From a virus (Monodnaviria > Loebvirae > Hofneiviricota > Faserviricetes > Tubulavirales), in the IMG/VR virus record IMGVR_UViG_2660238352_000022: a DNA stretch of 11,781 bases; one strand, 5' to 3'. The notes beneath the pieces were generated by a model. The model did not search any database. It saw nothing but the letters and a program-made list of their open reading frames with translations, and was not told the DNA's origin. The translations under genes and the position numbers were made by a program. Of the stretch, positions 2,645-3,438 are shown in pieces (the first letter of the stretch is position 1; each line of letters starts with the position of its first letter).

Positions 2645-2800
2645 TTAAAGGATTTCAGTGTCCTTACTTAGTTTTTTGTGTATGGTCATCACCAACGGTG
2701 GGACAAGCGTTATCAGGCTGAATATTGTCATGCCTGTGATGCTGCCAACAACGAAATGCTTTATCAGCAGGTCAAGGATTAAGTCACTGGTTATCTGCAT
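2645..2800 (-). CDS. Hypothetical small hydrophobic protein (51 aa), downstream of the regulator on the minus strand
   Basis: My own translation of the minus strand: MQITSDLILDLLIKHFVVGSITGMTIFSLITLVPPLVMTIHKKLSKDTEIL. It falls below the ORF track length cutoff. AGGA lies 3 nt upstream of the ATG (weak spacing). It ends just before the 2580..2617 hairpin, which is T-flanked on this strand too. Confidence 0.3.
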   Translation of the reverse strand: MQITSDLILDLLIKHFVVGSITGMTIFSLITLVPPLVMTIHKKLSKDTEIL

Positions 2801-2863
2801 ATTTCCTTGTTTAACTTTTCCTTTGATCTTTCCTGGCCTGTTTGTTTGACGTTGGGAAAGGGA

Positions 2864-3064
2864 TCACATTGCCTTTTTTTTCTTAAGTTCTTCCTGACTT
2901 ACCATATCTATTGCTGCGTCTTTTGCGTAGTGATCTATCATGTAAGACAGTACTTCGGTCCATTTTATGCTCCTTCCTATCTTTTGACTTGCATCAATAG
3001 CTAATCTTTCTAGCTTTAGATACTTCTCGTTTGGCACGTTATAACTCTTTCTTTTTTCAGCCAT
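2864..3064 (-). CDS. Putative small DNA-binding regulator (66 aa), divergent from the replication gene
   Basis: ORF from the track. Strong SD on the minus strand (AAGGGGG, 7 nt before the ATG). Basic N-terminus (MAEKRKSYNVP) followed by two predicted helices, compatible with a ribbon-helix-helix or similar small repressor. The divergent position relative to rep is analogous to rstR-type repressors of CTXphi-like phages. Confidence 0.55.
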   Translation of the reverse strand: MAEKRKSYNVPNEKYLKLERLAIDASQKIGRSIKWTEVLSYMIDHYAKDAAIDMVSQEELKKKKAM

Positions 3065-3438
3065 TATTTAGCCCCCTTTTTTGTATTTAGCCATCATGTA
3101 CTCTAGAGCACTTGAGCAAATGTTGTTAATACATCTTGTGTTCATGATGTTTTTTGAGTATGTTCTTTTTTGTCTTTCATCATGAGGACATGAGGTCATG
3201 CAAATTGTTTACTACGATTACTTTCCTGGGTTTGGTTTTTACTTGACTGCTCCTGTTTACTGTACAGCCCGTGTTGATGGTCTTTGGTTAAAATGTGACT
3301 CCTTTGATGAGCTGATCAATTACTGCCTTCGTTTTATTGGGCCAGAGTTCGTTCTTGTTTCTCTTTCAGTTCCTTCCGGATCGTGGGTTGTCTATCTGGA
3401 TATGGTTGAGGCTTCCGATATGGTTTCGGGAGAGGAGT
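3065..3438. promoter_or_regulatory. Divergent promoter/operator region between the regulator and rep
   Basis: AT-rich. Direct repeat TATTTAGCC at 3065..3073 and 3084..3092. CATCATG motif at 3092..3098 and 3179..3185, with its reverse complement (CATGATG) at 3143..3149. No promoter hexamers could be assigned with confidence. Confidence 0.4.

Follow-up and report, generated by a model that had tools for sequence, protein, structure and literature searches.

A putative ribbon-helix-helix repressor switch in the control region of a filamentous prophage integrated in tandem at dif

The IMG/VR virus record IMGVR_UViG_2660238352_000022, a stretch of 11,781 nucleotides (nt) referred to below as the window, derives from a filamentous prophage (inovirus). 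Our subject is its control region, which lies between the left boundary of a prophage unit and the replication gene rep. There, a small gene for a protein of 66 amino acids (aa) is read away from rep, a second small open reading frame (ORF) follows it on the same strand, and the DNA between the divergent genes is filled with short repeated boxes. Loci of related phages are denoted by the letter L and a number.

The divergent region and its two minus-strand genes

The features of the region are as follows.

2645-2800, minus strand: orf51, 51 aa, with one membrane-spanning segment, as judged from the ORF, its hydropathy and its homologs
2864-3064, minus strand: 66-aa ribbon-helix-helix (RHH) regulator by predicted fold, WP_001409658.1, PHROG 2503
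3065-3092: regulator leader, with copies of TATTTAGCC at 3065-3073 and 3084-3092 and a Shine-Dalgarno sequence at 3072-3078
3092-3115: putative operator O1, with the box CATCATGTA (CATG at 3095) and the imperfect 22-bp palindrome TCATGTACTCTAGAGCACTTGA
3129-3100, minus strand: predicted regulator promoter, TTAACA (3129-3124), 18 nt, TAGAGT (3105-3100); a consensus match only
3136-3164, plus strand: inferred rep-operon promoter, TTGTGT (3136-3141), 17 nt, TATGTT (3159-3164); read by eye
3141-3149: putative operator O2, TTCATGATG, CATG at 3143, within the spacer of the rightward promoter
3178-3200, plus strand: putative operator O3, CATCATGAGGACATGAGGTCATG, CATG cores at 3181, 3189 and 3197, 8 bp apart
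3198-3446, plus strand: orf82, 82 aa, acidic (isoelectric point, pI, 4.05), first gene of the rightward operon, its 3' end overlapping the start of rep
3439-5439, plus strand: rep, a Phage_GPA-type replication endonuclease (Pfam PF05840, E=2.5e-48; PHROG 91, E=1e-127)

The start chosen for rep is also the one used by the Prokaryotic Genome Annotation Pipeline (PGAP) for the replication endonuclease in Escherichia coli TD225-C4. This Phage_GPA-type gene is presumed to be the main target of the switch that we propose below.

The 66-aa protein has a pI of 9.4, and the Shine-Dalgarno sequence AAGGGGG (plus-strand 3072-3078) stands 7 nt ahead of its ATG. In the AlphaFold2 model of the monomer (predicted local distance difference test score, pLDDT, 83), residues 1-11 are extended and followed by a helix at 12-29, a turn, and a second helix at 35-65. 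This is the RHH topology of a β-strand, helix A and helix B within about 45 residues: the ribbon would occupy approximately residues 4-11 (KRKSYNVP), helix A residues 12-29, the turn G30-R31-S32, and helix B would begin at residue 35. In RHH proteins the ribbon strand is expected to form in the dimer only, and the G-x-S/T/N turn between helices A and B, which contacts the phosphate backbone, is the defining motif of the fold. Here, G30 is invariant in the 12 closest homologs, and the position two residues further on is S, T or A. The model resembles solved RHH structures, its best structural matches being MazE7, ParD, PrpA and TacA.

Between the window and E. coli cS51a, 22 of the 201 nt of the gene differ, all of them synonymously, and the protein is 100% identical; the regulator is thus under strict purifying selection. 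Considering the predicted RHH fold, the G-x-S turn and the synonymous-only change relative to the diverged copy, the 66-aa protein is very probably a DNA-binding regulator. It is matched by PHROG 2503 (E=7e-27), a family labelled 'unknown function', which in an exhaustive profile search comprises about 100 clusters at 50% identity, mostly of 60-90 aa. Searches of Pfam, NCBIfam and PADLOC returned nothing significant for the regulator, orf51 or orf82.

The first-pass annotation of this DNA placed all of its elements correctly, and its interpretation holds up in the main, subject to the corrections given below. It had recognized the basic 66-aa ORF with its strong Shine-Dalgarno sequence and had asked for a DNA-binding fold; such a fold is now predicted, though no Pfam RHH model is significant. 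It had also compared the protein to phage repressors such as RstR. That comparison holds for the position of the gene, divergent from rep; it fails for kinship, RstR being a helix-turn-helix (HTH) protein and ours a predicted RHH one. HTH families gave no match at E<=1, and since no HTH signal was found, the regulator is not a relative of RstR; an HTH_3/XRE identity was therefore rejected.

Downstream, orf51 ends 4 nt from the base of a large hairpin (2544-2641), and the earlier description of a hydrophobic 51-aa ORF terminating there was accurate. Its grand average of hydropathy (GRAVY) is 0.93, and the 19-residue Kyte-Doolittle window peaks at 1.85 over residues 16-34. Residues 1-15 are acidic, residues from about 16 to 40 hydrophobic, and the tail reads HKKLSK. 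The window offers orf51 good translation signals, with AAGGA 4 nt ahead of the ATG; those of its relatives are poor.

Whether this frame is a gene at all deserves consideration. It could instead be an open frame in an A+T-rich spacer, kept intact through its proximity to the phage attachment site (attP); we regard this as improbable, though it is the most serious of the alternatives discussed here. PGAP does not annotate orf51, most relatives have no Shine-Dalgarno sequence before it and a small hairpin at its ATG, and the ratio of nonsynonymous to synonymous polymorphism (pN/pS), 0.4-0.7 across pairs, amounts to moderate constraint on a short sequence. Against this, the frame is never interrupted, homologs as little as 63% identical still measure exactly 51 aa, their substitutions within the hydrophobic core being conservative, and cS51a has a 46-aa homolog in the same position beside attP, where BLASTN detects no DNA similarity. 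Moreover, the homology break at the edge of the variable cassette described below falls exactly at the orf51 ATG. Judged by these patterns, orf51 behaves as a real, conserved gene for a single-pass membrane protein.

The first-pass annotation had counted this ORF as a member of the regulatory module, and in this respect it has to be corrected. At least three different regulators precede orf51, one of them a non-homologous protein of 73 aa; because of this, and of the break at its ATG, orf51 belongs to the attP-proximal backbone rather than to the switch cassette. Its position suggests expression together with the repressor. As to its role, exclusion of other phages, by analogy to the protein PfsE discussed below, or toxicity would be guesses.

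In four relatives (L006, L008, L009 and L010) a 6-bp hairpin, ATTGCT-AAGA-AGCAAT, abuts the orf51 start codon; in L007 the cassette junction has removed the first base of the stem. Structure or coupling may play a part in the translation of orf51.

Operator-like boxes and an exchangeable cassette

Two kinds of intergenic repeat had been put forward as possible operators at the outset. The TATTTAGCC repeats are present, starting at 3065 and 3084, with 0.07 copies expected across the whole window. They are gone in cS51a, where the block 3094-3200 is kept with all of its CATGA boxes. Given this loss beside an identical protein, a role as operators is improbable and was set aside. The three CATCATG motifs in mixed orientation were correctly reported, at 3092 (plus), 3143 (minus) and 3178 (plus), and it is these that appear to belong to an operator array, a putative series of CATGA boxes.

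The density of the boxes was assessed post hoc, the motif having been picked after it was seen, by comparing 3065-3200 (136 bp) with 2,000 dinucleotide shuffles: CATG occurs 5 times against 1.2 expected (P=0.0015), CATGA on either strand 7 times against 0.8, and CATCATG 3 times against 0.07. A 43-aa ORF running through the same DNA (3068-3199, minus strand) was rejected as spurious, its frame not being kept in the relative cS51a.

The boxes fall on putative elements of gene expression. O1 overlaps the -10 hexamer and the predicted start of the regulator promoter, and is kept in cS51a with CATCATG changed to CCTCATG; the promoter scan finds TTAACA-18-TAGAGT in the window and in cS51a alike. In L014 and L015, the equivalent regulator-proximal box directly precedes a TATACT or TATAAT hexamer. 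O2 sits in the spacer of the rightward promoter, and in L014 the scan gives a good promoter, TTGAAC-17-TATTAT, directed towards rep, with the inverted boxes ACTCATGTGTTCATGAGT inside its spacer. O3 spans the Shine-Dalgarno sequence and start codon of orf82 and is identical in cS51a.

The specificity of RHH proteins resides in the ribbon (PMC3413123), and homologs sharing the ribbon pattern K-x-x-Y-N-V/I were for that reason expected to share boxes. The pattern was first seen in L014 and L015, and L023, L024 and L026 served as test loci; the DNA of these five does not align. L014, whose regulator is 58% identical, carries TGAACTCATGAG three times together with ACTCATGAACACATGAGT, and L015 carries ACATGAGTTCA and TTCATGAGC. 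Two of the test loci also have CATGA-type boxes, AACTCATGAACTCATGAAC in L023 and GAACTCAATAGCTCATGAGCTAATGAGTT in L024. Cores spaced 8 bp apart recur in O3 of the window, in L014 and in L023, and the middle box differs little between two lineages (TCATGAACACAAGATG in the window, TCATGAACACATGAGT in L014). Among loci of other ribbon subgroups, CATGA is missing from four of six, the remaining two having one and three copies.

The regulator and its boxes are exchanged as a unit. Several E. coli prophages have backbones 88-98% identical to the window up to position 2803, with a rep that also matches, and carry other alleles in between. On such near-identical backbones, alternative regulators of the same family measure 62, 71 and 60 aa, the 62-aa paralog being found in strain 700481 and the 60-aa allele, with a 1-nt frameshift, in 2015C-4136CT1. 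A distinct set of palindromic repeats accompanies each: TGCACAATTGCA with the 62-aa allele, two copies of CGCATGCG with the 71-aa allele, and several of TGTTAACA with the 60-aa allele; beside the unrelated 73-aa regulator the intergenic region contains ACTTAGAA three times. Conversely, cS51a carries the regulator, operators and first rightward gene of the window at 87% DNA identity, together with a different rep and different downstream genes. The allele of the window is present in 6 of 5,426 complete E. coli genomes.

The locus therefore behaves as an exchangeable, immunity-type cassette made of regulator, operators and orf82. Such a mosaic pattern is typical of the immunity regions of temperate phages, including rstR-ig2 of CTXφ. 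We read the CATCATG motifs as parts of an operator array because the boxes are conserved with the protein, replaced with the allele, and recur in distant homologs with the same ribbon.

The last member of the cassette, orf82, has homologs of 63-65 aa at the corresponding place in cS51a, L015 and L021, where a Rep_trans-type rep follows, and is missing from the backbones that carry other alleles; it is part of the cassette and moves with the regulator allele of the window. Its structure model, from a two-sequence run, has a pLDDT of 57, too poor for a fold search. orf82 could be a counter-regulator.

Two side observations concern the alleles. In L008 (E. coli 2015C-4136CT1, approximately 1810-2010), the 1-nt deletion cuts the regulator after 22 residues and the TGTTAACA boxes are intact; the prophage would be a natural repressor mutant, unless the deletion is a sequencing error. 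Furthermore, the last 15 or so codons of the 66- and 71-aa alleles (…EELKKK(K/R)AM) and the adjacent downstream DNA are 81-88% identical, the rest of the genes being different (window 2854-2901 compared with L009 3034-3081 and L006 2046-2125). The 3' end of the regulator gene is likely to be a recombination point for cassette exchange.

The position of the gene is preserved well beyond E. coli. Regulator and rep face away from each other in the window itself and in TD225-C4, cS51a, Dulem virus 52, Vibrio phage PE002B, L024 and L025, and a family member is divergent from rep in 10 of 11 IMG/VR loci, the eleventh being phage If1. There, an intact homolog lies within the 'major intergenic region', split from the replication gene by an insertion resembling IS200/IS605. 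In L026/L027, not clearly an inovirus locus, the regulator shares its strand with a weakly rep-like gene that lies downstream of it, and in L023 the divergent neighbour matched no assignable family. As in CTXφ, the regulator gene of the window occupies the attL-proximal end of a dif-integrated prophage and is read away from rep, an analogy of position and function only.

The If1 homolog (L003, NC_001954; 5119-5322, minus strand, 63-67 aa) is unannotated in the reference genome. The neighbouring segment 5388-7086 appears to be an IS200/IS605-type insertion, composed of a 147-aa ORF and the TnpB-like ORF348.

Three initiator families are found beside this one family of regulators: Phage_GPA in the window, Rep_trans in cS51a, L015, L021 and PE002B, and Phage_CRI/G2P in L014, L016, Dulem virus 52 and L024. 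This bears on a second alternative, in which the RHH protein would be a replication accessory factor of the TraY or NikA kind, binding and bending origin DNA in the intergenic region and aiding nicking by Rep. One source labels a Dickeya homolog 'Relaxosome protein TraY', and some members of the family are tandem duplications of 130-147 aa; TraY itself is a tandem RHH repeat, and intergenic regions of filamentous phages commonly hold origins. A nicking cofactor should, however, co-vary with Rep and the origin, and here the identical protein occurs with both Phage_GPA and Rep_trans, and the family with Phage_CRI as well, which argues for generic promoter control over a Rep-specific cofactor. 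The boxes, moreover, coincide with promoter elements and with the beginning of orf82, and in P2-type elements the origin is inside the A gene. We consider an accessory role unlikely, at around one chance in ten.

The proposed repressor switch

Altogether, we read the module as the control region of a filamentous prophage tandem-integrated at dif, operating as an RHH repressor switch, and we put the probability of this reading at about two in three. Dimers of the repressor would reach into the major groove with the N-terminal ribbon (K-R-K-S-Y-N-V) at CATGA-type boxes, which would form three clusters, O1, O2 and O3, within the 133-bp divergent region. With O2 and O3 occupied, orf82, rep and the phage genes further downstream would be little transcribed, and occupancy of O1 would let the repressor limit its own level. 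Repression of the rep operon by promoter occlusion, combined with autorepression, is the most likely form of control. In this manner, the module may govern the choice between lysogeny and phage production.

Superinfection immunity could follow, as a phage of like type entering the cell would find its promoters shut by this protein. Recombination would swap regulator, operators and orf82 together between phage backbones. The leftward transcript would probably run into orf51, made in the repressed state, and stop at the terminator of the attP hairpin.

Several observations weigh against this reading. The assignment of the regulator to the RHH superfamily comes from its predicted fold, modelled as a monomer, and not from its sequence: across 60 family members, the best scores against curated RHH models are ParG at E=0.019 and RHH_3 at E=0.034. 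Both promoters of the window are pattern matches only, and the rightward one, kept in cS51a, is a poor match that agrees with the consensus at 7 of 12 positions and falls below the scan threshold. Part of the conservation of O3 could be translational, given its overlap with the Shine-Dalgarno sequence and start codon of orf82. Boxes and ribbons do not correspond perfectly either, since L026, which has a Y-N-V ribbon, shows only degenerate TGAG/CTCA boxes and no CATGA, and L021, of another subgroup, holds a few CATGA.

The remaining difficulties concern lysogeny and orf51. A homolog in If1, a phage that does not integrate, means that the family is not tied to lysogeny, and its role may for this reason be control of copy number or expression rather than true lysogenic silencing. 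The orf51 homolog of cS51a lies 340 bp from the regulator; with this gap, and with no Shine-Dalgarno sequence in most relatives, co-transcription and efficient translation of orf51 are uncertain.

That same 340-bp separation speaks against a third alternative, which would make the regulator and orf51 a toxin-antitoxin-like addiction pair, with an RHH antitoxin acting as autorepressor and a small membrane toxin. The idea has some appeal: the best structural matches of the regulator (MazE7, ParD, PrpA and TacA) are RHH antitoxins, the order of genes is RHH protein, small hydrophobic protein, terminator, and type I and type V toxins are typically small membrane peptides of the size of orf51. A type II system would be expected to show conserved pairing with one cognate toxin, yet orf51 accompanies at least three regulators, one of them non-homologous, and most RHH members of the family have no orf51 nearby. 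Nor is there a C-terminal neutralizing extension: helix B runs through a variable charged tail to residue 65, and this short tail offers no obvious toxin-binding domain. PADLOC gave no match to the pair. An addiction module thus seems quite unlikely, though less so than the partition function considered next.

It is very improbable that the protein is a ParG-like centromere binder partitioning an episomal replicative form: ParG is its best profile match among solved structures, 5 of 60 members weakly match the ParG Pfam model, and arrays of short boxes resemble the parH centromere (PMC3130281), but these matches fall well short of significance, the N-terminal tail lacks the length needed for the ATPase-stimulating region of ParG, and no ParA/ParF-type ATPase is found among the annotated or called genes of the inovirus loci TD225-C4, cS51a, Dulem virus 52 and PE002B.

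Prophage setting, related systems and significance

The prophage sits in an E. coli chromosome in tandem, and by self-comparison the window consists of the tail of one prophage copy and a complete second copy. The tandem copies align at 1-1861 and 8022-9882 and again at 2357-2559 and 11333-11535; identity ends at 2559/11535, with divergence beyond. The sequence AGTGCGCATAATGTATATTATGTTAAAT that follows at the right end of the prophage (after 11535; window 11522-11549) is what we take to be the E. coli dif site. The nearest relative, in E. coli TD225-C4, adjoins hipBA in at least three tandem copies and is 98% identical across 2500-3500. Neither the module nor the complete phage unit matched any deposited phage genome at the DNA level in Megablast searches; this phage group is not represented there. 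The closest Rep proteins, those of Vibrio phages VFJ and fs2, are approximately 29-30% identical. Two nested structures lie at the left boundary of the unit.

2544-2641, plus strand: folded attP(+) hairpin with two inverted dif-like sites, at the left boundary of the prophage unit
2576-2614, both strands: inverted repeat forming a G+C-rich inner stem, 14 bp perfect, with an A run and a T run at its flanks

The arms of attP, found as inverted repeats in the window, read AGTGCGCATAA..TTATGTTGAAA on one side and AGTGCGCACAA..TTATGTATAAA on the other. Folded as single-stranded DNA, 2544-2641 reaches -40.2 kcal/mol (z=-10.2; none of 200 shuffles folds equally well), with the XerC-like and XerD-like arms paired and a 6-nt unpaired bubble between them. 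Two inverted dif-like sites with an unpaired centre, and a dif-flanked prophage often present in tandem, are hallmarks of integrative mobile elements exploiting Xer (IMEX) of the CTXφ type, which host XerCD integrates through a folded single-stranded attP; both are seen here, the second through the tandem copies and the presumed dif site. The hairpin is a CTXφ-type folded attP, with a probable terminator embedded in it.

The inner stem itself is likely a bidirectional intrinsic terminator, ending plus-strand transcription of the secretin operon and, from the other side, the minus-strand regulator-orf51 transcript. As minus-strand RNA it folds at -49.8 kcal/mol (z=-8). The terminator scan, limited to loops of 8 nt, made no call at 2576-2614, where the loop is 11 nt; folding reveals the stem. 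An Rfam scan of 2400-3500 yielded chance-level matches only and no known RNA element.

Rearrangements were noted elsewhere in the prophage copies. The secretin gene of the upstream copy is wrecked (window 1915-2356, compare 10275-10426): a 145-bp unit from its 5' end is present three times, most of the gene body is gone, and the N- and C-terminal fragments are fused in a 131-aa ORF at 2097-2492. In the second copy, a direct duplication of approximately 340-400 bp (9487-9882 and 9826-10221, 96% identity, about 59% G+C) lies between the zot-like and secretin genes; this segment is single in the first copy (1466-1861). A 454-aa protein (6522-7886), presumably the receptor-binding minor coat protein from its position, contains degenerate tandem repeats at 7198-7391 that encode a Gly/Ser-rich linker (GGSSGSGGSGSGS…). 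On the metagenomic contig L011 (825-1214), another and different dif-like hairpin comes after the orf51/attP end of one phage, and beyond it lies the end of the secretin gene of another element, making this a heterologous tandem array at dif.

Knowledge of how dif-integrated filamentous prophages are silenced comes largely from CTXφ and Pf. With the RstR/ig-2 system of CTXφ in Vibrio cholerae, the window shares a small attL-proximal repressor gene directed away from rep in a dif-integrated tandem prophage, a variable, type-defining repressor-operator segment, and integration through a folded attP hairpin. RstR is, however, an XRE-type HTH protein, whereas the protein of the window is a predicted RHH with no HTH match; the replication protein is RstA in one case and of the Phage_GPA type in the other, and the CATGA-box arrays and the placement of orf82 between operators and rep set the window apart.

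In Enterobacterales, Ypfφ/CUS-1 and UPφ are likewise dif-integrated tandem prophages with small reverse ORFs proximal to dif and a presumed repressor upstream of rep (PMC4266046, PMC7307601). In the published accounts, the regulator of Ypfφ is called an RstR homolog, or the ORFs are left unnamed (PMC4266046, PMC7307601).

Among RHH proteins, CopG (RepA) of pMV158 offers a parallel in function: it is a 45-aa RHH dimer that represses the initiator promoter of a rolling-circle replicon and sets its copy number (PMC2724298). Size, fold and target, the rep promoter of a rolling-circle-replicating element, are common to both. On the other hand, copG is co-transcribed with repB from the repressed promoter and the regulator of the window is divergent from rep; CopG has one pseudosymmetric element and the window three box clusters, and no significant sequence similarity was found between the proteins. 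Arc and Mnt of the phage P22 immI region are also RHH repressors, of approximately 53-82 aa, acting at closely spaced divergent promoters with autoregulation. They differ in controlling an antirepressor in a tailed phage and in binding a single operator of about 21 bp as a tetramer, and no sequence relation to them was detected.

The arrangement of boxes has its counterpart in ParG of TP228, ω of pSM19035 and MetJ, which recognize several direct or inverted boxes of 4-8 bp with a periodicity of about 8 bp, one dimer per box, through ribbon specificity (PMC3130281, PMC3413123); ParG in particular binds arrays of 4-bp boxes with AT-rich spacers (PMC3413123, PMC3130281). ParG and ω differ in serving partition with a ParA-type ATPase, which the system of the window does not have, and MetJ needs a corepressor. 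When the family profile was compared with the PDB, the best solved-structure matches were ParG (E=0.019) and TTHA0139, both RHH proteins and both sub-threshold. Homology of the regulator to ParG within the RHH superfamily is plausible, and the signal for close kinship at E=0.019 is weak.

For orf51, the comparison is with PfsE, which Pf phages of Pseudomonas encode: this inner-membrane protein, hydrophobic and very small, blocks superinfection by inhibiting type IV pili (PMC8764522), and illustrates a way in which a product of the orf51 kind could act. It is an analogy by description only, genome position and host being different.

A broader picture can be drawn tentatively, and on balance we would not expect all of it to hold. 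PHROG 2503 would represent a widespread, undescribed immunity class of filamentous phages in which ribbon residues set the reading of 8-bp-spaced boxes and cassettes move across unrelated Rep proteins. The alleles of E. coli would form a heteroimmunity series with a ribbon-to-box code, with orf82 as an anti-repressor or Cro-like protein and orf51 as a repressor-linked exclusion factor.

The concept of a small repressor controlling rep in a rolling-circle element is not new, and the system of the window is an uncharacterized member of a familiar type of switch. What it adds is a name for a family of putative RHH repressors that is absent from Pfam and of 'unknown function' in PHROGs. Dif-integrated filamentous prophages occur in pathogenic E. 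coli, Yersinia and Vibrio, and the small dif-proximal ORFs of the E. coli and Yersinia elements, to which published accounts assign no function or an RstR-like regulator, gain a concrete, testable identity. Candidate operator boxes are made explicit, and the alleles swapped between near-identical backbones constitute a natural set for work on immunity and specificity. For the annotation of inoviruses, a PHROG 2503 member divergent from rep would be a compact marker, as illustrated by the unannotated gene of If1.

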